Below the pieces are notes generated by a model that saw only the letters and a list, made by a program, of their open reading frames with translations, was not told where the DNA came from and searched no databases. A program made the translations under genes and the position numbers. Below, one piece after another: positions 2,135-62,845 of a DNA stretch of 64,000 nucleotides (positions are counted from its first letter, which is position 1; every line of letters begins with the position of its first letter). This DNA comes from Acinetobacter phage ABPH49: the sequence record MH533020.1; one strand, given 5' to 3'.

Positions 2135-2277
2135 CGGGTACCCGAAGTAAACTCCGAGGCCACCCAGCGCAAAGCTTTGGCGTGGAGGTGTTTGAACTCC
2201 GGCAGAGGGATGTCGAATTCGTCACCGTCGTTAACCCGCTCGTTAAATTGCGGAAAATTTGGTCTTGTTTTGGTCAT
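2047..2277 (-). CDS. hypothetical protein (76 aa; C-terminal part may be out-of-frame)
   Basis: RBS AAAGGGG before ATG at 2277; N-terminal 47 aa look protein-like, the rest overlaps the 1862-2134 frame. Confidence 0.45.
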   Translation of the reverse strand: MTKTRPNFPQFNERVNDGDEFDIPLPEFKHLHAKALRWVASEFTSGTRWRKSRRSIVESPVASLHRRAPCSAGQGT

Positions 2278-2281
2278 TATT

Positions 2282-2485
2282 TTACCCCTTTACGTTGCCG
2301 AAGATGTTGTAAGCTTGCGATCTGTCGATCTCCCCGTGAACCCAGTGGTCCTCTTTCTCGTGGCACACCTTGCATATCCGGTACACCGTCGTAACGGGAC
2401 CATCAACCATGACGTTGTGGTCAAGGTGGGAGATCACCCAGTCGTGTTTGCACGACCTCGCCTTCTTCATGAAAAATCCGAACAT
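2282..2485 (-). CDS. small zinc-finger-like protein (67 aa)
   Basis: RBS GAGGAG; Cys/His spacing CKHDW...CKVCHEKEDH. Confidence 0.65.
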   Translation of the reverse strand: MFGFFMKKARSCKHDWVISHLDHNVMVDGPVTTVYRICKVCHEKEDHWVHGEIDRSQAYNIFGNVKG

Positions 2486-2487
2486 GG

Positions 2488-2736
2488 TTACTCCTCGCTG
2501 ACCCAGTATTTGTAAAACATAGAGTTAACAGCGACGCTTGACTGCTCGTAGAAGAAGTCCGCACCGGTACCTGTGTAGAATGTGGCGAGGTTTGGATGGT
2601 ACGAAGTTACCAAATTGAACAGCGCCTGACCGTAGCGGAGGTCAGGGTTCTTGATAGCCTCGTCATGCGCTCGAGAGGCAAGTTCCACGGCAACGAGTAA
2701 CGGAATCCGGTTGATTTCTTTATCCAGCTTTGACAT
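2488..2736 (-). CDS. hypothetical protein (82 aa)
   Basis: RBS AGGAGAGG. Confidence 0.65.
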   Translation of the reverse strand: MSKLDKEINRIPLLVAVELASRAHDEAIKNPDLRYGQALFNLVTSYHPNLATFYTGTGADFFYEQSSVAVNSMFYKYWVSEE

Positions 2737-2886
2737 ATCCTCTCCTAATGTGAGTTCTGTTTCGATATGGGGATTCTCTCACCTGAAGACATCCATGTCA
2801 ACAGAAAAGATCACAATTTTGCGAGGAGGAGAGTCAAGCCGACCGTGGCACCAATCCCAACGCAAAGAATCAACTCAATAATCTCG

Positions 2887-3522
2887 TTACTCATTGATTT
2901 CCTCAATCAGTTGGTTCAGTAAGTCTCTGAGTTTTATGATGTTTTTAACACCCATGATGGAAACCTCCTGATTTTTATTATCATCTCGCCTCAGGCTGAT
3001 GGTGCTGGCATTCCCGTTCGAGGTCGCCGTTACAATGGCATCATCGATCTTTCCGCATACCCTCATCGCAGGCCAAGCTACCGTAACCTCCTTTTCGAAG
3101 AAGTCTCGTACCAGCCTAACCACCACCGGTCCGTACATCTCCGCAACCTTGATGATGCGTTCCACACGGTGATATGCTACATCACGCTCACCAATAAACC
3201 GTGTAGTCAAGCATCGAGCTACCTGCACCAAGTGGTTATCGTTATCGGCGCGGAAGCTCCAGTAGCCCTCAGGGTAGGATGACGGCATCATCCGGGTAAG
3301 CAGGCGCTCCAACTGCTCGTCCACGATCTCAACATCTGGATGGATCATCATAGCCGAGAAGTGAAAAGACATCATGTTCCAGTCTACAGCTCCCGGCCCG
3401 CCGGGGAGGGCATCTGAATACATCAGGTAGCCGGACTCGCGAGCTTGACGAAGGTCCATTGTGGACATAAGCTCGTACTCTTTGCGTGGCACAACCACGG
3501 CCACTGATTGCGGCATACTCAT
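2887..3522 (-). CDS. hypothetical protein (~211 aa)
   Basis: ORF; start MSMPQS with GGGGTGG RBS. Confidence 0.6.
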   Translation of the reverse strand: MSMPQSVAVVVPRKEYELMSTMDLRQARESGYLMYSDALPGGPGAVDWNMMSFHFSAMMIHPDVEIVDEQLERLLTRMMPSSYPEGYWSFRADNDNHLVQVARCLTTRFIGERDVAYHRVERIIKVAEMYGPVVVRLVRDFFEKEVTVAWPAMRVCGKIDDAIVTATSNGNASTISLRRDDNKNQEVSIMGVKNIIKLRDLLNQLIEEINE

Positions 3523-4160
3523 TTGAACCACCCCTTTATTTTATCCACCACCGTCTGTCGTGGAGGTGCTGGCTTCAGCGTGAAGTTCTCTGGAACAACA
3601 ACCAGATCTTGGGTCAAGAGGTCGTGAGCCTCCTTCATCATCTTATCTAAGTTGTTGAATTTTCTATTCATTTTTGAAACTCTTGCAAACTTCTCGGTGA
3701 GTTCACCCACAGCCAGACTGTATTCACCCTCCAAGAATATCACATGTTCCATTAGGCCGGTTACTTTGTAGCCCCAATGACTGTGAGGATCAGGGCGAAT
3801 TCCAGTTTTCTGGCATACGGCATCTAGCTCATTGTAGGCCGCTGTCAGTGCGTTCCAGATTCCCTCTACACGCTCTGAAGAGCCTGACAATCGGTCCTTG
3901 TAGGGAGCCGTATCAAACTCTTCCAGCCGGGGGTAGATTCTCTTCGGAGGAGGGGCACTTACGGCCTGAGTTTCCAGAGCTTTCTTCGTTCCGATCGTCA
4001 GACTCAGCTGATCGATATCTGACACCCGATCAAGGATGTACCGGCGCAGGCCTACAACCCCGTCAGGACAAGACAGAATCTCTTTATACCCCCGCGAGGA
4101 GTTTACCTCGATCTTCGTCGTGTGTTTGGACAAGAAGTCCAGAATTTCTGTATCGGTCAC
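3519..4160 (-). CDS. hypothetical protein (213 aa)
   Basis: GTG start at 4160 with GAGGA RBS 7 nt upstream. Confidence 0.6.
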   Translation of the reverse strand: MTDTEILDFLSKHTTKIEVNSSRGYKEILSCPDGVVGLRRYILDRVSDIDQLSLTIGTKKALETQAVSAPPPKRIYPRLEEFDTAPYKDRLSGSSERVEGIWNALTAAYNELDAVCQKTGIRPDPHSHWGYKVTGLMEHVIFLEGEYSLAVGELTEKFARVSKMNRKFNNLDKMMKEAHDLLTQDLVVVPENFTLKPAPPRQTVVDKIKGWFK

Positions 4161-26502: not shown

Positions 26503-28269
26503 TTACATGAACTCATCGAAGTAGATCACCTCGCCAAATGGCGCTATCCACGGTGCCCGTCGCCCACCCAGCTTGACCCACAAGGTTTGGTTGTACTTGT
26601 GGTACCAATCTTTCTCGTTGGCTGGAGAGTGGAACTCGCAGTCAGTGAAGATTATCAGCTGATCAACCCGCTCGTCAAGCGTGTCGAGGTAATTAAACAC
26701 GCAGAACACGTCAGTCCCCCACGAAGTCTCGATCTTGTAATCGTTGATCTCGAAGGCATTCTCTTTCGTGTACCGGCATACCTTGCCCACGTGCGTTGAC
26801 CAGCAGAACAATACCACCTCGAACTCGTCGAACTGGTTCATCAGTCCACCGATCTCATTTCGAACATGGCGGAGAAGGCCGTCGTTAAATGACCCTGACA
26901 CGTCGAAACCAATGAATACCTTGATGATCTTCTTGGTATCCTTGCCCGGCAACACGACCGACTGGTTCGGCTTAATGTACCCACCTGACCGCAGTGAGCG
27001 AGTCAATGACCACGACCGACGATGTGGACGGCGATACGACACGTTTTCCTTACGCAGAGACATCAGGGTCTTACGGATCATCTCCATGTAGTTGATACAG
27101 GCTTGTTGGCCGTCTTCCAACCACTCGCGGGCCTCTTTTGGTGCAGCTGCCCCAGCGTTAATGATCGCAACCTCGCATGTGCGACGCATAACCGCCTGAT
27201 TTTCTTTCATCTCCTCTTCGGAAATCTCAGGCTGCTTTGATGTGTCTACGCCCAGTGCACTTTGGATATCCCCGAGGGAAGTCTTTCCGTCATCATCCTC
27301 TTCACCTTCCTGATCGGAGGATCCCTTTCCGCCGACGCCGGATCCTTCTCCCTCTTCTTCACCCTCGCCCTCTTCAGGTTCGCCTTCCCCGTCGCCAGAA
27401 TCTGCTTCGCCTGAGCCTTCCAAATCCCCCTCGTCGTCCTCTTCTTCCTCGGTATCATCGTCTTCATCCGGGGAAGACCCGCCACCTTCTTCTTCTTCGG
27501 GTTCCTCAGGTGGTGGAGTGCCAGAATCATCCTCTTCTCCCTCCGGCTTGTTGCCGGATCCGTCTTCATTGAGGTGGACGTCGTGGGACTTGTCTGGAAC
27601 ATCCTCGCCAGACTCTACACGCTTGTAGATGTCTCGGTAAATGTCTTCAGTCGCCCAGTTCAGGTACTTGAAGTCTACGCAGCACAGGGACAACCATCCG
27701 AACTCTTCACCACGGACAAAGACAGTTTTCTCTGCATCAGGGAACCACGCCTTGCCGAGGGCATCAGTTTTACTGTGCTCGATTACCAGACTTGTGTTGA
27801 TGCCGTGATCCGCAGCGATGTTGAACTCATCATTGTTGAACTCTTTACCACGGAAGATGTGTTCGTTCAGTACGTGGCGCACCTCATGCTCCATGACAAA
27901 GACAACCTCGCGAGGGGTCTTCTCTTTGAACCAAACATCCAGCTCCTCCTTCAGCCGCTGCCGCTTAGCGAAGGACATACCCAGACTGTCGATGCGCTTG
28001 TGGACCATCTCACGGCGCTTCTCTGACATCCCGGCGATGAACTCGACGGAGTAGTAGAAGTTGCGACCATCAGTGGCGCAGGTACTTAACCACTCTGTGG
28101 CCTCAACAACCGGCATGGATGCGAGCATGGTGCCGTAGAACGGGCGAACACGCTGAAGCTGTATGGATGCCATCTCCAACAGGCGGGTCGCCTTCTCGGA
28201 GTTTATACGCGCCTCTGCAAGCTCTTCTTGGGTCATGTGTTTTGGTGCAGTTAACAACTCGATAGACAT
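26503..28269 (-). CDS. CobT-like VWA-domain protein with N-terminal HExxH metallopeptidase-like domain (DUF2201-type) and ~100-aa acidic linker
   Basis: N-terminus HEVRHVLNEH (HExxH); C-terminus DVSGS (MIDAS DxSxS) with VWA-like beta-alpha pattern; central D/E/G/P-rich tract; start MSIELL with GGAGGAAAGA RBS. Confidence 0.75.
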   Translation of the reverse strand: MSIELLTAPKHMTQEELAEARINSEKATRLLEMASIQLQRVRPFYGTMLASMPVVEATEWLSTCATDGRNFYYSVEFIAGMSEKRREMVHKRIDSLGMSFAKRQRLKEELDVWFKEKTPREVVFVMEHEVRHVLNEHIFRGKEFNNDEFNIAADHGINTSLVIEHSKTDALGKAWFPDAEKTVFVRGEEFGWLSLCCVDFKYLNWATEDIYRDIYKRVESGEDVPDKSHDVHLNEDGSGNKPEGEEDDSGTPPPEEPEEEEGGGSSPDEDDDTEEEEDDEGDLEGSGEADSGDGEGEPEEGEGEEEGEGSGVGGKGSSDQEGEEDDDGKTSLGDIQSALGVDTSKQPEISEEEMKENQAVMRRTCEVAIINAGAAAPKEAREWLEDGQQACINYMEMIRKTLMSLRKENVSYRRPHRRSWSLTRSLRSGGYIKPNQSVVLPGKDTKKIIKVFIGFDVSGSFNDGLLRHVRNEIGGLMNQFDEFEVVLFCWSTHVGKVCRYTKENAFEINDYKIETSWGTDVFCVFNYLDTLDERVDQLIIFTDCEFHSPANEKDWYHKYNQTLWVKLGGRRAPWIAPFGEVIYFDEFM

Positions 28270-28343
28270 TCTTTCCTCCAAAAGAAAATGGGCCATCTGT
28301 TAAGATGACCCATTGTTTCATGTGTTGATTACGAAGTCAACAC

Positions 28344-29618
28344 CTATTTGAATGCACTCGCCATCGATGCATATCGCGCCATGTACATCGAGACGATATT
28401 CGACAGGTCTTTCACTTTTCGCAGCAAGCTGGTGATCAGGTTATCGCCACGCAGTGGGTTCATGTCCAGAATCGCCTCTTCCTCTTTGGCAACCTGACGC
28501 ATCAGCTTCATGGAGACAGCAATGATCGAGTCCTTGGCTTCATGGATGTGGTTTTTCATCATGAATTTCAGGAAGTTAGCTACACGACTCAGGAACTCGT
28601 CGTTGCTGTACTTGTCGATATTCATCACATCTTTCTTCAGCTGGCGCAGGCAGTAATACACCAACACGGACACCAGATCGATCTCGTTAGGTGCCAGTTT
28701 GTTTTTGTGCTCTGTTACCTTCCCGCTGAGTACGTCCTCGGCGTCTGGAAGCTTCTTAGACCGCACGTGGTGGTCCATCAGGGCAGTTACCATGTCTGAA
28801 CCAACCAGACCTTGAATAGCCACTTCTGCCAACTCACGGTCCAGCTCTCCGGCATCATAATCATCGAGAACATTGCCGCAGTCTACCAGTTGGCGAGGTG
28901 ACGAGAAGCATGGCCCTTCGAAGCCTTGTGTACCAACCAGATGGCCGGTATAGATTTTGTCCGGGTTTTTCTTGATGAAGGTTACGACGCTCTGGTGCAC
29001 GTTCTGAGGAACAGCGAAGTCCTCGATCCACACAGTTGCGTTATAATCAACCTCAACAATCATCATTCGGTTAACCAACGGACCCAACAGCTCGGTTGTT
29101 GCACCGTTGTCGCCCGGGCGGTTACCAGCACCGATAAAGACGGACTTCGGGAAGGTGAACTCGCCGATACGGTGATCCAGCATGATCTGGTATGCCGCCT
29201 GTTGACACGCCGGGCTGGCGTTTGTCAGCTCGTCAAGGAAGACGAATCCGCGCCAGTTTGGGTCGGTAGGCCAGAAGCTTGGCGTTGCGTACACGGTTCT
29301 GACGATAGTCTTTCCGTTCTCGACAACCTCAACTGGGATCTGCACACCGGCCAAGTCGGCAGGTTCTTTATCCGACAGGCGGATATCACAGACTGACCCC
29401 CACGACGTACCGATGTAATCTGGGAACATCTCCGCCGCGAGTTGGGCAATCTTTTGGGATTTACCAAGACCGGCACCGCCGAAGAAGAAGATCGCCTTGC
29501 CAGTTTTGGCACAGTGTTTGATCAGGGGTTCCATCTGGCGCATGGTTATGCGACGAGTGAAGATGTTTTGCTTTTTGTACTGAGCCACAATATTTCCTCT
29601 TTCATGTGAATGAGGCCC
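28344..29618 (-). CDS. CobS-like MoxR-family AAA+ ATPase
   Basis: Walker A GGAGLGKSQ, Walker B FVFLDE; directly upstream of the VWA partner; start MGPHS with AAAGG RBS. Confidence 0.75.
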   Translation of the reverse strand, partial: GPHSHERGNIVAQYKKQNIFTRRITMRQMEPLIKHCAKTGKAIFFFGGAGLGKSQKIAQLAAEMFPDYIGTSWGSVCDIRLSDKEPADLAGVQIPVEVVENGKTIVRTVYATPSFWPTDPNWRGFVFLDELTNASPACQQAAYQIMLDHRIGEFTFPKSVFIGAGNRPGDNGATTELLGPLVNRMMIVEVDYNATVWIEDFAVPQNVHQSVVTFIKKNPDKIYTGHLVGTQGFEGPCFSSPRQLVDCGNVLDDYDAGELDRELAEVAIQGLVGSDMVTALMDHHVRSKKLPDAEDVLSGKVTEHKNKLAPNEIDLVSVLVYYCLRQLKKDVMNIDKYSNDEFLSRVANFLKFMMKNHIHEAKDSIIAVSMKLMRQVAKEEEAILDMNPLRGDNLITSLLRKVKDLSNIVSMYMARYASMASAFK

Positions 29619-29644
29619 CATGATAAGGACCTTTTGACAGGATG

Positions 29645-29866
29645 TCAAATTACTTTTTCGTACCCTTCTGCATAGAGGTCAGTGACAAACCATGCAACCA
29701 ACTTGACTCCACCTTCAGAGAATGGATCCAGTGCCGACGGGTATGGGGTAGCCATAGTTCCATCTCGCCTTTCAAACCAATTTGTCAGGGTTTTGTTTGC
29801 GAAGTCGAATCGGTAAGTATGTCCCGAGATTGGTTCGCGAAAAGTCAAGGTATCATCTTGATTCAT
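29645..29866 (-). CDS. hypothetical protein (73 aa)
   Basis: GGAGAG RBS. Confidence 0.6.
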   Translation of the reverse strand: MNQDDTLTFREPISGHTYRFDFANKTLTNWFERRDGTMATPYPSALDPFSEGGVKLVAWFVTDLYAEGYEKVI

Positions 29867-30116: not shown

Positions 30117-30407
30117 TCATGTCCGATTCATCATAGAAGAATCCTTGGTGGCACCCATTTCCCCGGCAAACATGGGCTTTAGCTTTTTTCGTTGCCGGAT
30201 GATCCAGAATCCACTGTGACCACCTTTCCCAACCTCCTCGAGGTAACCTTTGGAGATCAGGCCTTCCGCCACCTTTCCGATTTTAACAGGTAACAGGCAG
30301 TCCCCGTCCCAATACTGGGTTTTTCGACGAGGACTGGCCTCTATCTCCCAGCCAAATACAACAGCAGCTTGGAGGAAACTTGCCTCGCGTTTGTTAATCT
30401 TGCTCAT
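30117..30407 (-). CDS. hypothetical protein (~96 aa; start MSKINKREAS), possibly DNA-binding
   Basis: GGGGG RBS; TGATG overlap with upstream HD gene. Confidence 0.5.
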   Translation of the reverse strand: MSKINKREASFLQAAVVFGWEIEASPRRKTQYWDGDCLLPVKIGKVAEGLISKGYLEEVGKGGHSGFWIIRQRKKLKPMFAGEMGATKDSSMMNRT

Positions 30408-30886
30408 CACTGACCCCCGTGAAGGATTTCGTGCAGCTGGCGGGCAGAGTCCAGACGAACCCACATCGCGTGGTATTTACGCATACGCAGCAGATCCTTG
30501 TCGGTAATGCCCTTCAGGCGGCGAATGTCGGTATTGTGGCGCAGGTCGGCCAGCTTAACCAGTGTTGCATTCGGGCTTTGCATCAGGCCATTGAGGTATT
30601 CCTCAGGCGTCTGACCTTCCTTCTTGGTCATGCGGTCGACAATGTCCACGACGGACTTGTCAAATCCGGCCTCGAGGAGGTATTCCAAAGTGACGTTGGT
30701 ATCTTCCACCAGATCGTGCATTACCGCAGCCGCTTTCACCAACGGGTCCTGCGACTTGACGTAGTGCATCACTTTCAAGCAGTGCAGGATGTATGGTTGA
30801 CCACCCTTGTCAAACTGGCCGTGGTGATGGGTAGCTGCCAGATAGATTGCTTTAGCCAGTTGTTCTTCTTTGCTCATCAGTTCCAT
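30407..30886 (-). CDS. HD-domain (p)ppGpp hydrolase (Mesh1/SpoT-hydrolase-like small alarmone hydrolase)
   Basis: motifs HHHGQFDKGGQPYILHCLKV ... HDLVEDT match the HD hydrolase signature of RelA/SpoT/Mesh1; AGGAGAAG RBS. Confidence 0.75.
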   Translation of the reverse strand: MELMSKEEQLAKAIYLAATHHHGQFDKGGQPYILHCLKVMHYVKSQDPLVKAAAVMHDLVEDTNVTLEYLLEAGFDKSVVDIVDRMTKKEGQTPEEYLNGLMQSPNATLVKLADLRHNTDIRRLKGITDKDLLRMRKYHAMWVRLDSARQLHEILHGGQ

Positions 30887-30898
30887 TATCTTCTCCTA

Positions 30899-31846
30899 TT
30901 AAAACATCTGTGGTGGCGGGAAGTATCTAATTTCTTCGTACTTAGGATATGAAGGATATCCTAACTTCTCCCCCTCGTCAACAAAAAACTGACCATCAGG
31001 CCAAACCATCCGAACCAGTGGTGGGATCTCTGGAAGGTTTTTAATCTCCTCGTCGAGCATCTTTGCAACATCCTGCGTCCGGCAGAAGGAAGCACATACC
31101 CTGTCATTTGGGAAAATAACAGATTCATGCTCTGTGCCGATCTCCATCCACATGTGGGTGTCACGATTGGACCAGCTGGAATAGTCCCTGACATTGGACC
31201 CATAATCCGGCCGCGCCGGTGCATTGCCGAAGTTTATCCGCAAGCCACCCAGCTGCGTCCTAACCCTATTGACGCCATACCCGAATTCCTTCGTCACCAG
31301 AGAGATCTCTGTCCCGAGCGTCAGCTCTTTGTGTTCTTCGGTGAGAAGACTACTCACCGCACTTAAACCCTCTATGCAGTACCAGAGGGACCCAACTTTT
31401 GGGCCACTACCCTGTTGGGAATCGAGCTTATAGAAATGCTCGAAAAGCTCCTCCAGAACGGTTTTTATGGAGGTGTTGTAGAATTTAACCATCCCAGTCC
31501 CGCTGACTGTCGGCATCAGATTAGGGCTTGCATTGGTGGTGGTGTGGTATCGGATAGATGGAGCCTCACGATAGAGAACAAAGGAAACGTCATCCCTTTC
31601 CTGATGCTTTACTGAATAGGCAGCGGCGCTGCCCATATTGATCATCGCATCAAGAATGCGCTCATGGAACTGAACAGACCGGTAATTTGGTATTTTACGC
31701 AAGGCTGAGTAAAACAGTGACTCATTTTTGTCGTTGGTCTGAGTGTCCCAATTGCCATTCAACATCGCCTTCATCTCCCTTTCTGAGAAGTTTGGTGTGC
31801 GTATGGATCGTTGTCCGACCCACCACGGATTTTTGTCAATTTTCAT
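30899..31846 (-). CDS. hypothetical protein (~315 aa), first gene of the left arm
   Basis: AAGGAGGG RBS before ATG (MKIDKNPWW); no recognisable domain. Confidence 0.65.
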   Translation of the reverse strand: MKIDKNPWWVGQRSIRTPNFSEREMKAMLNGNWDTQTNDKNESLFYSALRKIPNYRSVQFHERILDAMINMGSAAAYSVKHQERDDVSFVLYREAPSIRYHTTTNASPNLMPTVSGTGMVKFYNTSIKTVLEELFEHFYKLDSQQGSGPKVGSLWYCIEGLSAVSSLLTEEHKELTLGTEISLVTKEFGYGVNRVRTQLGGLRINFGNAPARPDYGSNVRDYSSWSNRDTHMWMEIGTEHESVIFPNDRVCASFCRTQDVAKMLDEEIKNLPEIPPLVRMVWPDGQFFVDEGEKLGYPSYPKYEEIRYFPPPQMF

Positions 31847-31904
31847 ATTCCCTCCTTCATTAGATTCACATAAAGGTACCATGATATTTTTATGATTTCA
31901 AGTG

Positions 31905-31933
31905 TTGACTTCGGATAATTCGACATGTAATAT
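31905..31933 (+). promoter_or_regulatory. sigma70 promoter TTGACT-N17-TAATAT that launches the right arm
   Basis: consensus hexamers; a divergent minus-strand promoter probably overlaps at 31870-31900. Confidence 0.6.
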
Positions 31934-31965
31934 TGGCACATCTTAAACGAACTGAGGGTATGAAT

Positions 31966-33921: not shown

Positions 33922-34929
33922 ATGACTCTGCAAACTCAAATCTCTACTATCAAAGATGTAAACCGCGCTTATGGCTACACCGATTGTGGCTCTCTGGTCC
34001 GCAAACTGGGTAACAAGAAGCTGAATGCAGCTGACCGAAACATCGCGTATGACCTGAACTTTGACGACCTCCTGATGATGGGTTATAAACTCTCTGGCAA
34101 CGGCACCTGTGACTATACCGGCTTACCTTTCTTCGGTACCGATAACGAAGCCTTCGCCCCGACCATCGAGCGTATCGACGACTGCAAGGGCTATGTCCGT
34201 GGCAATATCGCCATTGTTGGTGCCCGGGCAAACTATCTCAAAGATAAGTTTATCGACAAGAACCATCAGGACCCTTCCGATCTGGAGCTGAGCAAAGACG
34301 ACATCAAGATCATCAACGCCATGCTGCCGCGTGTACACGCCAAGGGTTATCTGGAAGCCCTGAAGGGGAAATACATCCCTAACTTCGCAACCGAAGAAGA
34401 ACTGGTAAAAATGCTGGACGAGAAGTGGTTCTTACCATCACTCCACCGCATCAACGACCAGCTGGAAGAGATCGCCAAAGGATCTGCTCCAGAGGATGGT
34501 AACATTTCCCTTCAGGGCGTGGGTGCGAAACTGGAAGTTCCTGAGGTGGATACCTCAGAAGAGGTTGATGCAGCACCTCTGGAGATCGACACCTCAACCC
34601 CGGCAGAAGATGAAGCAGAGAAGCCTTCTTTGCCAGATGATGTGGAGATTGCCGCGAGTTACGCAAAACTCTGCCGGGCACTGGGTAAAGTGATGACTGT
34701 GAATATCACCTTCAGCCAGTACAAGAGTATCTACACCAACAAGCGTTGCCCGTTCACCGGTGAAGAGTTGACAGAGCGTTACCCTCTGATCCTCGACCGA
34801 TCGTTGCCTCTGGAGTCTGGCAACGTGAAGATGACCAGCAACCGAGTTGGGCAGGCAATGAACGAATTTATCGACGCCACAGGCCTGTCTGTTTTCGAAC
34901 TGGCTAAAAACCTGAAGAAGTTGGCGTAA
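33922..34929 (+). CDS. protein with two degenerate Endonuclease VII-like (beta-beta-alpha-Me) repeats
   Basis: internal duplication; KGYVRGNIAIVGARANYLKDKF and SGNVKMTSNRVGQAMNEF resemble T4 Endo VII GKVRGLLCNLCNAAEGQ.KHKF, but the Cys/His ligands are mostly absent. Confidence 0.65.
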   Translation: MTLQTQISTIKDVNRAYGYTDCGSLVRKLGNKKLNAADRNIAYDLNFDDLLMMGYKLSGNGTCDYTGLPFFGTDNEAFAPTIERIDDCKGYVRGNIAIVGARANYLKDKFIDKNHQDPSDLELSKDDIKIINAMLPRVHAKGYLEALKGKYIPNFATEEELVKMLDEKWFLPSLHRINDQLEEIAKGSAPEDGNISLQGVGAKLEVPEVDTSEEVDAAPLEIDTSTPAEDEAEKPSLPDDVEIAASYAKLCRALGKVMTVNITFSQYKSIYTNKRCPFTGEELTERYPLILDRSLPLESGNVKMTSNRVGQAMNEFIDATGLSVFELAKNLKKLA

Positions 34930-57389: not shown

Positions 57390-57688
57390 ACACACCTGTG
57401 GTCACTGCGTTGGTAAAATACGACCTGTTCCCACATTATGTGGTATGTACCGGGACCCTCCGTAATGACGGCGGTATTCAAATGTCCGGGGCTTCTTACT
57501 ATCCGGCGGGGAGCGTTCTTCGTATCCTCCCTGAATCCTGTTATCAGGAGGAACGGCGCAAGCGAGGGGAACTCGAGCGCCGCCACTCGGCAGGGGTTGA
57601 GCGTCTTCGCTATGAACTCTTGTCGGAGGCTGGGGTTTTGGAACTCGTAGGACGAGGAGAGGGGAATGGCGCGGATACGGGTTACTGA
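57386..57688 (+). CDS. hypothetical protein (100 aa)
   Basis: ATGA overlap. Confidence 0.55.
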   Translation: MNTPVVTALVKYDLFPHYVVCTGTLRNDGGIQMSGASYYPAGSVLRILPESCYQEERRKRGELERRHSAGVERLRYELLSEAGVLELVGRGEGNGADTGY

Positions 57689-57857
57689 CCGGGGAGGCTG
57701 CTACATCCCGTCCTCTGAGATAAGAGAACTTCCAGAGGTCAAGGAAATGCAGCGCCTTGCCAAAATAATTGTTGAAAAGTCTCGGGAAATGTCTTACCGT
57801 ATGTTGGAAGGATTGCCGGAGAAGATGGAAGAAGAGAACTTCAACAATCCCGAATAA
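57666..57857 (+). CDS. hypothetical protein (63 aa)
   Basis: GGAGAGGGG RBS. Confidence 0.5.
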   Translation: MARIRVTDRGGCYIPSSEIRELPEVKEMQRLAKIIVEKSREMSYRMLEGLPEKMEEENFNNPE

Positions 57858-57863
57858 AAGTTG

Positions 57864-57892
57864 TTGACAGCAGAAATTCACCGGGTTAATAT
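57864..57892 (+). promoter_or_regulatory. sigma70 promoter TTGACA-N17-TAATAT
   Basis: consensus; upstream of the 667-aa gene. Confidence 0.6.
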
Positions 57893-57924
57893 ACTCGCAC
57901 ATTCACTGAAGAGGAGTTTTAAAG

Positions 57925-59928
57925 ATGGCAAATTTCGCCAAGTTCGCAGAAGCAGTTAAAGCACGTTTCGTTCAACTGGAAGCACGCGGTCTGTTCAAGG
58001 TCGAGCTGTCGAAAGACGAGATCTGGGACGCATATATGGCAGCGTTCCCGGCGGGCACCAACGAAATGTTCCGTGAGCGCCGTGAGTACGACTGTAACAC
58101 CTGTAAGCAATTCCTGCGTACCGCCGGTGGGTCTGTGGCAATCGGCGACAACGGTGAGCTGCTGTCAATCTGGGAAGTCGACGCTGAAGGTTACTACCAA
58201 GAAGTGGCCGACAAGATGGCGGCGCTGGTCAAGTCTGCTCAGATCCGTGGCAAGTTCTACCACTACGAAAACCGTGTGGGCATGAAAGAAACCCGCAACC
58301 TGTCCAATGTGGGTGACAAAGTTGAAGTGTACAACCACTTCTACGCTCCGCTGGCAAACAGCAGTGTCAAGCGTAAAGACGACATCGCAACTCAGCTGGG
58401 CCGCGAGCGTGCCAACAAAGACGTGCTGCTGCGGACGATGGAAGAGATCAGTCTCGATTCGGCAGAAACCGTACTGGAGCTGATTGCCCAGAACAGCCTG
58501 TACCGTGGAGAAGAGCACAAGCGCACCATCGAGCTGTTTGTACGACTGAAGCGTGCGTTCGATAAAGCCGACAACAAAGACACGTTCGCGTGGGTTGAGA
58601 GCCAGAAACTGGGTGAAGCTTCCAAGATCCGTAACACCGTGATCGGCACCCTGCTGTCCGACCTGTCAGAAGGTCAGGATCTGGAGAAGGCGGTTAAGTC
58701 GTTCGAAAGCAAAGTGGCACCGACCAACTACAAGCGCCCTACCGCGCTGGTAACTCCGGCCATGATCAAAAAGGCACAGGAGAAGGTTGAAGAGTTGGGC
58801 CTGATCGATGCACTGCCGCGCCGCTTCGCAGTGGCTACTGACCTGAACATCACGAACGTACTGTTCGCTGACCGTTCCGTCAAGCCTGCGATGAACGTGT
58901 TCGAAGAGCTGGCGCAGGGTACCGGCGTCAAAGCCAAGGACTTCGGCAAGGTTGAAGAGATCGGCATCGAAGACTTCCTGACCAAGGTACTGCCGTCGGC
59001 AGAATCTCTGGAAGTTCTGGTGGAGAACGGCCACACTGGCAACCTGATGAGCCTGATCGCTCCTCAGCACGCAGACGCTCCGAACCTGATGAAGTGGGGC
59101 AATAAGTTCAGCTGGTCGTACAACGGCGATGTTACCGACTCCATTAAGGAGCGTGTGAAGTCTGCCGGTGGTTGTGTCGAAGGTGCACTGCGTGTGTCTC
59201 TGGCATGGAGCAACCCGGACGATCTGGACCTGCACATGCGTACCCCGGACGGCCACCACATCTACTACGGTAACAAGCGTGGGGGCGGTGCGGAGCTGGA
59301 TCTGGACATGAACGGCATGGACAAACATGATGCCAACAACCCGGTAGAGAACATCATCTTCGTCAGCGAAGGTAAGATCAAAGAGGGTGTCTACACCGTG
59401 TGGGTAAATCAGTTCCGCCGTCGTTCTGGTGACCGTGTTGGTTTCACCGTGCAGCTGGATCACAAAGGTACGCAGTTTGACTTCAGCCACCCGAAAGAGC
59501 ACCGCTCCGGCGATGTGAATGTGGTTAAGTTCAACTACAGCCGTAAGGATGGCATCAAGATCATCGAATCGATGCCTCATACCAAGCAGTCGAAGGAAGT
59601 GTGGGGCGTAACCACCGAGAAGTTCCAGAAGGTCAGTATGGTGATGAACTCGCCAAACCACTGGGACGGTGAGCAGACCGGCAACAAGCACGTGTTCTTC
59701 ATCCTGCAAGGTTGTAAGAACCCTGACGCGGCACGCGGCTTCTACAATGAGTACCTGCGTGGCGATCTGGAAGAGCACCGTAAAGTGTTCGAGCTGCTGG
59801 GTGGCAAGATGAAGGTTGAGCCGTCCGACGATCAACTGAGTGGTGTTGGCTTCTCCAGCACGAACCGCAATAAAGTTGTCGTAAAAGTGACTGGAAAGGT
59901 TGCACGAACCCTGAAAGTTGTGTTCTAA
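57925..59928 (+). CDS. large hypothetical protein (667 aa), probably highly expressed
   Basis: AAGAGGAG RBS, own promoter, strongly biased codon usage (CGT/CTG/CCG), hairpin downstream. Confidence 0.8.
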   Translation: MANFAKFAEAVKARFVQLEARGLFKVELSKDEIWDAYMAAFPAGTNEMFRERREYDCNTCKQFLRTAGGSVAIGDNGELLSIWEVDAEGYYQEVADKMAALVKSAQIRGKFYHYENRVGMKETRNLSNVGDKVEVYNHFYAPLANSSVKRKDDIATQLGRERANKDVLLRTMEEISLDSAETVLELIAQNSLYRGEEHKRTIELFVRLKRAFDKADNKDTFAWVESQKLGEASKIRNTVIGTLLSDLSEGQDLEKAVKSFESKVAPTNYKRPTALVTPAMIKKAQEKVEELGLIDALPRRFAVATDLNITNVLFADRSVKPAMNVFEELAQGTGVKAKDFGKVEEIGIEDFLTKVLPSAESLEVLVENGHTGNLMSLIAPQHADAPNLMKWGNKFSWSYNGDVTDSIKERVKSAGGCVEGALRVSLAWSNPDDLDLHMRTPDGHHIYYGNKRGGGAELDLDMNGMDKHDANNPVENIIFVSEGKIKEGVYTVWVNQFRRRSGDRVGFTVQLDHKGTQFDFSHPKEHRSGDVNVVKFNYSRKDGIKIIESMPHTKQSKEVWGVTTEKFQKVSMVMNSPNHWDGEQTGNKHVFFILQGCKNPDAARGFYNEYLRGDLEEHRKVFELLGGKMKVEPSDDQLSGVGFSSTNRNKVVVKVTGKVARTLKVVF

Positions 59929-59989
59929 TACACACATGGCCCCGGTGCTCGGGGCCTAAACAACAAATTCCATTGAGAGGAGAATAAAG

Positions 59990-60388
59990 ATGACTACTAC
60001 CGCAAACCTGTTCGAACTGGCTGCACGTCGTAAGTTCCGTTTCGAGTCCCCACGTGGCCTGCTGACCGTAGAAGACCTGTTCGAGCTGCCGCTGACCGGC
60101 AAGCTGTCCCTGAACACCGTGGCGCAGCTGGTTAACCGCGACGTTAAGGCGCTGACCGAGGAAAGCTTCGTCGATACCCCGACCATTCAGGCATCTCTGG
60201 CGACTGACAAGCTGGAACTGGTTAAGCGTGTAATCGCTATCCGTAAAGAAGAAGGCGAACAGCAAGATCGTGCCCGCAACGCTGCGGCTCAGAAACAAAT
60301 CCTGCTGGCGGCGCTGGAGCGTAAAGACCAGCAAGATATCAACGAGCTGACCCGCGAAGAGCTGCTCGCTAAGCTGAAAGACCTGTAA
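59990..60388 (+). CDS. hypothetical protein (132 aa), highly expressed-type codon usage
   Basis: GAGAGGAG RBS; terminator follows. Confidence 0.7.
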   Translation: MTTTANLFELAARRKFRFESPRGLLTVEDLFELPLTGKLSLNTVAQLVNRDVKALTEESFVDTPTIQASLATDKLELVKRVIAIRKEEGEQQDRARNAAAQKQILLAALERKDQQDINELTREELLAKLKDL

Positions 60389-62004: not shown

Positions 62005-62238
62005 ATGGCACAGAACTTGCACATCAACAACTATCAAGAGCGTGTAACCATGCTGGCGCGGGAGATCTTTATTGCCGCCGGGGGTAAAATGGTACCATCG
62101 GATGCCTTCATCCACGCTAAGCGGTTCATCGAAGAACAGCAGTGGCAAGAAGATAAGGCTCGTAAGGAGTCAGAAGAGGAGTTGGCACGCACGCTGGCCC
62201 GAGCAAACAAACCACACGGGGGTACGTTACGTGGCTAA
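62005..62238 (+). CDS. hypothetical protein (~77 aa)
   Basis: GGAGG RBS. Confidence 0.6.
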   Translation: MAQNLHINNYQERVTMLAREIFIAAGGKMVPSDAFIHAKRFIEEQQWQEDKARKESEEELARTLARANKPHGGTLRG

Positions 62239-62245
62239 GAATCAC

Positions 62246-62845
62246 ATGATGTTGGATATTGAGACTCTCGATCTCAAACCAACGGCTGCGGTATTGAGCA
62301 TCGCGGCGACATTCTTCGATCCGCTTACCGGCGAGCTGGGTGAAAGCTTTGATAAGCAGATCAACCTGAAGTCGTGCACGGACCTCGGCCTGACTGTTGA
62401 TCCTTCCACAATTATGTGGTGGATGGAGCAGTCGAAGGAGGCTCAGGACGCCTTCAAAGGTAACAACAAGGCGCAGGCCTTGTCAGAGGTACTCATCAAC
62501 TTCCACAACTGGGTAACTCTGCATAGAGGCTATCTGTTTTCAGATGGTGAGTCAGACCTCTGTGTATGGGGAAACGGCAAAGACTTCGATTGCGTAATCA
62601 TCGAAAATGCCTACCTCGCTGCGGGGATTAAACGCCTGTGCCCTTGGAAATTCTGGGAAACAATGGATGTTAGAACCCTTGTCCAGCTCGGGTCAATGGC
62701 TGGTGTTCCTGACTTCAAGAAAATGGCACTTGACAACTTCAAAGGTGTCAAGCACAATGCTCTCGATGACGTGCAGAACCAGATTAAGTACGTTGTCCAG
62801 TACACACAGGCGCTGGTAGGCAAAGGTGGTGTTGATGCTCAGTAA
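62246..62845 (+). CDS. DEDDh-family 3'-5' exonuclease (DnaQ-like)
   Basis: Exo I LDIETLDL, Exo II VWGNGKDFDCVII, Exo III HNALDDV; start at ATG 62246 or GTG 62231. Confidence 0.7.
   Translation: MMLDIETLDLKPTAAVLSIAATFFDPLTGELGESFDKQINLKSCTDLGLTVDPSTIMWWMEQSKEAQDAFKGNNKAQALSEVLINFHNWVTLHRGYLFSDGESDLCVWGNGKDFDCVIIENAYLAAGIKRLCPWKFWETMDVRTLVQLGSMAGVPDFKKMALDNFKGVKHNALDDVQNQIKYVVQYTQALVGKGGVDAQ

Follow-up and report, generated by a model that had tools for sequence, protein, structure and literature searches.

The closest described relatives of the gene considered here are Aph1, encoded by a prophage of Bacteroides caccae (PDB 7SMG; Ahmad et al., 2023, PMC10083569), and the small alarmone hydrolase (SAH) of the Vequintavirinae phage PVP-SE1. 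Wild-type Aph1 shows no detectable hydrolysis of ppGpp unless the substitutions D24R and R119A are introduced, and all 12 tested Aph homologs hydrolyse ppApp (Ahmad et al., 2023). The PVP-SE1 enzyme, a stand-alone SAH of the PbcSpo subfamily, neutralised all five validated toxSAS toxins in Escherichia coli, namely CapRel, PhRel2, FaRel2, PhRel and FaRel (Jimmy et al., 2020, PMC7229694), a result also summarised elsewhere (PMC7644958). Here we analysed a stretch of 64,000 nucleotides from Acinetobacter phage ABPH49 (record MH533020.1; hereafter the window), which shares about 98% identity with Serratia phage vB_SmaM-Kashira (hereafter Kashira), a member of the Vequintavirinae. The window carries a gene for a 159-amino-acid protein, hereafter the hydrolase, which an earlier note on this DNA had taken for a (p)ppGpp hydrolase that blocks the host stringent response. 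Judging from its sequence, a predicted structure and the properties of its relatives, we consider it reasonably probable that the hydrolase is instead an adenosine 3′-pyrophosphohydrolase of the Aph1/PbcSpo clade, which would counter toxSAS-mediated abortive infection by acting on (p)ppApp and/or on tRNA ends.

CapRel, PhRel, PhRel2 and FaRel2 pyrophosphorylate tRNA, and these four of the five toxins neutralised by the PVP-SE1 enzyme make no alarmones; the product of FaRel is (pp)pApp, and FaRel depletes ATP. Both human MESH1 and ATfaRel, the SAH antitoxin of the Cellulomonas marina faRel operon and likewise a PbcSpo member, reverse the pyrophosphorylation of tRNA and restore aminoacylation, ATfaRel taking the 3′-pyrophosphate off tRNA CCA ends (Kurata et al., bioRxiv 10.1101/2021.04.30.441581), and the SAH of Salmonella phage SSU5 has been reported to remove the tRNA modification (PMC11559606). 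CapRel is an antiphage abortive-infection system, variants of which, from Salmonella phage SJ46, Enterobacter and Klebsiella, have been tested against coliphages (PMC9712102), and the undoing of toxSAS action by SAHs during infection was already proposed in the discussion of Jimmy et al. (2020; PMC7229694). As (pp)pApp and the tRNA A76 products have in common a pyrophosphate on the 3′-OH of an adenosine, we infer that both would fit an adenine-specific pocket.

Comparison with PVP-SE1 revealed that its gp220 (ADP02616.1) is 53% identical to the hydrolase over 156 amino acids (E = 3e-57) and is the only homolog of the hydrolase in that genome. The two genes occupy the same place, second after a strand switch and ahead of a gene for a MoxR-like ATPase, and the order of strand switch, one gene, HD gene, small genes and MoxR-like ATPase gene is common to PVP-SE1, 4MG, Kashira and L008, an uncultivated metagenomic relative. 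The ATPase gene of the window, Kashira and L008 is followed by one for a DUF2201/VWA protein. The PVP-SE1 SAH and the hydrolase are positional orthologs, and it is by this orthology, not by subfamily hidden Markov models, that the hydrolase was assigned to PbcSpo. Both enzymes belong to Vequintavirinae phages and both stand alone, with no linked toxin, whereas the host genus (Salmonella against Serratia) and the first gene of the operon, which in PVP-SE1 is unrelated to the 327-amino-acid open reading frame (ORF) of the window, are different. The anti-defence role that the earlier note had suggested is supported as plausible, because the positional ortholog neutralises toxSAS toxins in E. coli (PMC7229694).

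The hydrolase ORF is a genuine conserved gene and no chance ORF, since an identical protein (KASHIRA_02420) is deposited for Kashira, 3455 homologs were found in a large protein collection (E <= 1e-5) and 330 phage genome records hold a homolog. A copy with 81% identity is found in Serratia phage ChuuTotoro, and T4-like Aeromonas phages also encode a homolog. The ORF listing of the window gives the reading frame with an ATG start and with the exact length and coordinates already proposed (Table 1), and the motif string THHHGQFDKGGQPYILHCLKV...HDLVEDT, which had first drawn attention to the gene, is found in the translation, where it reads THHHGQFDKGGQPYILHCLKV...MHDLVEDT.

By its sequence, the product is an SAH of the RelA/SpoT superfamily. 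It matches Pfam HD_4 (2.8e-9; 37.3 bits against a gathering cut-off of 27.2) and, also above the gathering cut-off, Pfam HD, as well as PHROG 990, 'metal-dependent phosphohydrolase' (5e-57). Its alignment with NCBIfam TIGR00691 covers only profile positions 1-118 of 687 and scores 57.9 bits against a cut-off of 499; together with the length of 159 amino acids, this marks it as a lone hydrolase domain, without synthetase or regulatory domains. As the match is confined to the N-terminal hydrolase part of that profile, the GenBank product name 'GTP pyrophosphokinase' is a misnomer. KASHIRA_02420 and the ChuuTotoro copy both carry it, and other records name homologs 'metal-dependent phosphohydrolase' or 'ppGpp hydrolase'. 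H35, H57-D58, E61-D62, D114 and N118 show no or almost no variation among the 120 closest homologs, and H35, H57-D58, E61-D62 and D114 line up with their counterparts in Aph1 and BsRel. The metal-binding H...HD...D signature claimed in the earlier note is thus present, with the full catalytic set intact and conserved, and the RelA/SpoT/Mesh1 superfamily proposed there is confirmed by the Pfam and NCBIfam matches and the catalytic residues; similarity to a dNTPase-type HD family, the alternative raised at the time, was not reported in the Pfam or NCBIfam scans.

In both sequence and predicted structure, the hydrolase groups with the (p)ppApp-specific Aph1 family and not with the (p)ppGpp hydrolases. 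The best match in a search of PDB sequences was Aph1 (7SMG, E = 6e-26), with Rel, SpoT and Mesh1 next (E = 2e-11 to 4e-7). A monomer model built with AlphaFold2 on 59 homologs (pLDDT 93.3, pTM 0.88) led to the same best match in Foldseek, where 7SMG came first (E = 9e-10; target-normalised TM 0.90; root-mean-square deviation, rmsd, 1.5-1.7 Å) and MESH1 second (3e-7; rmsd about 4 Å), followed by Rel, SpoT, PaSAH and RelH; the rmsd of the model against Mesh1, Rel and PaSAH was 3.2-8 Å. The model superposes on the entire 7SMG, and its sole extra element is a longer last helix, so that the predicted fold is compact, all-helical and devoid of helices 0 and 9 of the (p)ppGpp hydrolases. The Aph family was defined by a search with the C-terminal third of Aph1, a region without the HD motif (Ahmad et al., 2023, PMC10083569). 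When the C-terminal 66 amino acids of the hydrolase (residues 94-159) were searched alone against all PDB sequences, they matched only 7SMG (E = 2e-4); Rel, SpoT, Mesh1, PaSAH and any other (p)ppGpp hydrolase were absent even at E <= 10.

The Aph signature consists of D24, R96, D116, R119, K133 and Y134, five of which have been reported to lie near the Aph1 active site, R96 not being among those named (PMC10083569). Five of the six positions are kept in the hydrolase, where D26, D120, R123, K137 and Y138 correspond to Aph1 D24, D116, R119, K133 and Y134, respectively. The specificity positions D26 and R123 are each found in all of the 120 closest homologs, as is Y138, with D120 in 119 and K137 in 118 of them. 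The residues that contact guanine in TtRel are R43, R44, S45 and T153 (PMC10083569), and these contacts are not kept: D26-K27-G28 replace R-R/K-S and R123 replaces T, BsRel having R and T at the positions of D26 and R123. Among the nucleotide-binding residues of Rel, N118 is the only retained contact, a shared contact to the ribose. In addition, an 11-residue insertion of BsRel is absent from the hydrolase and from all Aph-type proteins aligned. As both the best sequence match and the best fold match are to Aph1 and the residues for adenine specificity are kept, the hydrolase is predicted to be an adenosine-specific 3′-pyrophosphohydrolase, a prediction that is not absolute. The database labels 'GTP pyrophosphokinase' and '(p)ppGpp hydrolase' (GenBank/IMG) could be corrected in this direction, to which the evidence points.

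Compared with the individual enzymes described, the hydrolase has in common with Aph1 a compact HD fold, the catalytic residues and all but one of the six signature residues, those equivalent to D24 and R119 included. It differs from Aph1 in sequence (about 35% identity, with G at the position of R96), in length (159 against about 143 amino acids, the C-terminal helix being longer) and in setting, since Aph1 is an immunity gene beside the MuF-Apk2 toxin of a temperate phage, whereas the gene in the window is toxin-less and belongs to a Vequintavirinae phage. Aph1 forms a homotetramer; the hydrolase was modelled as a monomer. ATfaRel has been placed in PbcSpo together with the PVP-SE1 enzyme and, like it, neutralises all five toxSAS tested, but it belongs to a three-gene toxin-antitoxin operon and has been reported to degrade both ppGpp and ppApp. 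The SAH of phage SSU5 resembles the hydrolase in being a stand-alone phage SAH, neutralises five of five toxSAS tested and belongs to another SAH subfamily, PaSpo. The SpoT/Rel hydrolase domains, Mesh1, PaSAH and RelH share the superfamily, the HD/ED chemistry and the cleavage of a 3′-pyrophosphate; they are much weaker matches, have guanine-contact residues at the positions of D26 and R123, possess an additional segment and additional helices, and in most cases form dimers.

Given the antiphage role of CapRel, the rescue from toxSAS by the PVP-SE1 SAH and the repair of tRNA by SAHs, the likeliest function of the hydrolase would be the enzymatic reversal of toxSAS action during infection. We propose that the phage enzyme acts as a stand-alone, metal-dependent adenosine 3′-pyrophosphohydrolase. 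Its gene, surrounded by small genes of host-takeover type, would be second in an operon that is probably transcribed from the strand-switch promoter region. During infection, the enzyme would cleave the 3′-pyrophosphate from (p)ppApp, giving ADP or ATP, and/or from A76 of pyrophosphorylated tRNA. Such cleavage would undo the work of toxSAS abortive-infection effectors, so that translation and ATP pools would stay available for the phage.

Several points weigh against this proposal. The window protein and its homologs in Serratia phages are known from sequence and prediction, and the role is argued from relatives; toxSAS neutralisation by the PVP-SE1 enzyme was seen upon over-expression in E. 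coli and not in phage infection (PMC7229694); and our literature search found no paper in which deletion of a phage SAH sensitises the phage to CapRel or another toxSAS. Early expression of the gene, which the earlier note took to be immediate upon infection, is suggested by its position. As for specificity, the sixth signature residue is lost, Aph1 R96 being replaced by G100, and G occupies this position in 85 and R in 10 of the 120 closest homologs. Modest ppGpp activity was found in two of the 12 Aph homologs tested (PMC10083569), and ATfaRel degrades ppGpp as well as ppApp within the PbcSpo subfamily; membership of the subfamily does not guarantee strict adenine specificity, and some ppGpp activity of the hydrolase is possible.

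These last observations are also part of the case for a hydrolase that has (p)ppGpp as its main substrate, by which the host would be kept out of the stringent response or pppGpp-producing defence effectors would be defeated. The superfamily is that of RelA/SpoT hydrolases, homologs are labelled ppGpp hydrolases in the sources, the degradation of ppGpp by ATfaRel was observed in vivo, and PANGU type I is a published antiphage toxSAS that produces pppGpp (bioRxiv 10.64898/2026.04.06.716658). The restriction of phages through the stringent response has been reported as well. We nevertheless regard this explanation as unlikely: Rel guanine contacts are replaced at both D26-K27-G28 and R123, wild-type Aph1 with the same D24/R119 signature is inactive on ppGpp, and every (p)ppGpp hydrolase is clearly more distant in both sequence and fold. 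The earlier note had named (p)ppGpp as the substrate and a block of the host stringent response as the main effect; on the evidence of the specificity residues and the similarity ranking, the former is probably wrong and the latter probably concerns the wrong target.

Somewhat less credible still is a role as a metabolic helper, in which the enzyme would remove (p)ppApp, an inhibitor of purine synthesis, whether basal, stress-induced or brought in by type VI secretion system (T6SS) toxins of neighbouring bacteria, and so keep the supply of ATP and purines high for phage DNA synthesis. The predicted substrate is identical to that of the toxSAS-reversing enzyme proposed above, Aph1 protects against the T6SS toxin Tas1, the phage has many nucleotide-metabolism genes, and (pp)pApp inhibits PurF. 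Nothing indicates, however, that basal (p)ppApp limits phage growth, and the gene lies among small genes of unknown or host-takeover type, whereas the nucleotide-metabolism cluster is elsewhere, at 75-82 kb in Kashira. The 'thymidylate kinase' that neighbours the gene in some relatives was considered as a sign of nucleotide metabolism and rejected: it is absent from the window, where the 327-amino-acid ORF is unrelated to it, and its PVP-SE1 version, gp219, has no Pfam kinase match. As the first gene of the window operon is unrelated to gp219, there is no conserved kinase partner and no context of nucleotide metabolism.

We consider it very improbable that the substrate is some other phosphorylated nucleotide, such as NADPH, pAp or 3′-phosphoadenosine 5′-phosphosulfate (PAPS), deoxynucleoside triphosphates (dNTPs) or an adenosine-based immune signal yet to be recognised, rather than alarmones or tRNA. 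MESH1 has NADPH phosphatase activity and binds PAPS as well, and HD domains are catalytically versatile; on the other side stand the absence of reported dNTPase-type families from the scans mentioned above, the hydrolysis of ppApp by every Aph-family member tested (PMC10083569) and the fact that known substrates account for the rescue from toxSAS by the PVP-SE1 ortholog.

The weakest explanation, immunity against a (p)ppApp-synthetase toxin of the phage itself, is how Aph1 acts in the apk2-iapK-aph1 modules of temperate phages, including prophages of B. caccae and Streptococcus pneumoniae, and is here largely refuted, since none of the 53 larger ORFs of the window has a Phage_Mu_F or RelA_SpoT domain in Pfam, the gene lies in an early-type region and not beside head genes, and the PVP-SE1 enzyme is described as stand-alone (Jimmy et al., 2020, PMC7229694). 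In Streptococcus phage IPP46, a homolog with 40% identity is encoded immediately after a MuF-family gene and a small ORF, which matches the published module. From this position and layout, the C-terminal part of the IPP46 MuF-family protein (2198-3781) is expected to represent the Apk2 (p)ppApp-synthetase toxin domain, yet Pfam RelA_SpoT misses it at E <= 0.01 and only Phage_Mu_F is found. Because Pfam is blind to this Apk2 domain, negative Pfam scans are weak evidence against toxSAS-type toxins, and tblastn and phmmer searches were therefore added: the MuF toxin and IapK of IPP46 gave no better than chance-level matches, either in the window or elsewhere in the Kashira genome (best E about 0.3), in a search of limited sensitivity for very divergent toxins. 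A 'FluMu protein' of Kashira was rejected as a MuF-toxin candidate, being a Portal_Mu portal protein.

With regard to the organisation of the locus, the earlier note had placed the hydrolase gene third from a divergent promoter hub. Only one gene, the 327-amino-acid ORF, lies between it and the strand switch, which makes it second on the leftward side (Table 1). The TAA stop of this upstream gene is only 12 nucleotides ahead of the hydrolase ATG, so that the two genes are probably co-transcribed, and the hydrolase stop shares TGATG with the ATG of the downstream gene, which suggests translational coupling. In view of the spacing of ribosome-binding site and stop codon upstream and the overlap downstream, the three genes look like a single operon. 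The strand-switch region is the presumed site of divergent promoters. A promoter scan found five sigma-70-like sites in 3.2 kb, where 4.1 were expected by chance, and the hits at the junction were therefore not counted as evidence; in the PVP-SE1 record, a promoter is annotated at the corresponding junction. A literature search yielded no usable transcription data for Vequintavirinae.

Table 1. Coordinates of the hydrolase gene, its surroundings and other genes of the window mentioned in the text.
Feature	Position	Strand	Basis or remark
Small alarmone hydrolase, predicted Aph1/PbcSpo type, 159 aa, single domain	30407..30886	-	ORF, Pfam, PHROG, PDB match, AlphaFold2 model, Foldseek, conservation
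Shine-Dalgarno AGGAG	30893..30897	-	6 nt 5′ of the hydrolase ATG in the nucleotide sequence
Leading ORF of the leftward operon, 327 aa counted from its first ATG (Kashira annotation: 314 aa)	30899..31882	-	ORF listing, Kashira record
Downstream gene, 96 aa, PHROG 24592	30117..30407	-	ORF listing, PHROG
Strand-switch intergenic region, presumed divergent promoter site, ~120 bp	about 31844..31965	.	Local GC minimum 33%; sigma-70-like hexamer pairs on both strands
MoxR-like AAA ATPase	28344..29648	-	
DUF2201 metallopeptidase/VWA-like protein	26503..28296	-	
CapR-domain protein	33922..34929	+	Pfam PF21817; PHROGs
Rv2179c-like 3′-5′ exoribonuclease (probable position)	62072..62845	+	Coordinate offset to KASHIRA_00210

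The first gene of the operon appears as a variable slot immediately 5′ of the conserved hydrolase gene among related phages. Its product has no match in Pfam, PHROG, PDB sequences or PADLOC and is unrelated to the genes at the same position in PVP-SE1 (gp219, called 'thymidylate kinase' in some records) and 4MG; only its C-terminal 70 amino acids or so resemble the positional counterpart in L008 (E = 1e-11). The downstream gene ends at a stop at codon 97, giving 96 amino acids in the window against 117 in Kashira, though the two genomes are about 98% identical. PADLOC defence models gave no match for the hydrolase or either of its neighbours. Farther leftward, the gene for the MoxR-like ATPase, labelled 'replication factor protein' in Kashira and 'MoxR ATPase' in PVP-SE1, is followed by that for the DUF2201/VWA-like protein, which contains a long acidic low-complexity linker and is labelled 'putative metallopeptidase' in Kashira but 'HNH endonuclease' in PHROG 1314.

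On the other side of the strand switch, one of the two window ORFs with a CapR homology domain (Table 1) has, in addition, matches to the PHROGs of the Srd anti-sigma factor and of a sigma-70 decoy. The presence of this Srd-like, CapR-domain protein fits a host-takeover region and suggests that the rightward arm encodes functions for the takeover of host transcription. Outside the window, a nicotinamide phosphoribosyltransferase and a ribose-phosphate pyrophosphokinase are annotated side by side at 57616-60330 of Kashira, a pair that resembles the NAD+-reconstitution counter-defence pair of phages, and more than 20 tRNA genes lie in the same stretch. The gene pair and the tRNA genes together suggest that the phage is well equipped against abortive-infection and tRNA-targeting defences. 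In addition, one of the 53 scanned window ORFs has an Rv2179c-like 3′-5′ exoribonuclease domain (Pfam, 4e-53); it is probably the counterpart of KASHIRA_00210, named '3′ exoribonuclease' in Kashira, and may be relevant to the theme of tRNA 3′ ends.

The enzyme family (2023), its specificity determinants, stand-alone phage copies and the neutralisation of toxSAS by the 53%-identical positional ortholog (2020) are already published; the window protein is an additional member of a published hydrolase family, and the counter-defence idea itself dates from 2020. Beyond this, we tentatively suggest, as a possibility that we would not yet favour over its opposite, that in the lytic Vequintavirinae and the T4-like Aeromonas phages the hydrolase is chiefly a counter-defence by RNA repair, its D26/R123 pocket reading A76 of tRNA so that the 3′-pyrophosphate left by CapRel-type toxins is stripped off. 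If this is true, such a phage could multiply even after the abortive-infection system of its host had been triggered; the repair would be the first enzymatic reversal of toxSAS shown during infection and would account for the frequency of a '(p)ppApp-specific' family among phages without a (p)ppApp toxin. More generally, toxSAS systems are known from a Salmonella prophage and from Enterobacter and Klebsiella, and, if the role proposed here holds, the hydrolase would provide Vequintavirinae phages with a ready-made counter-defence against CapRel, FaRel and their relatives, which would be relevant to the prediction of host range for therapeutic phages of this group.

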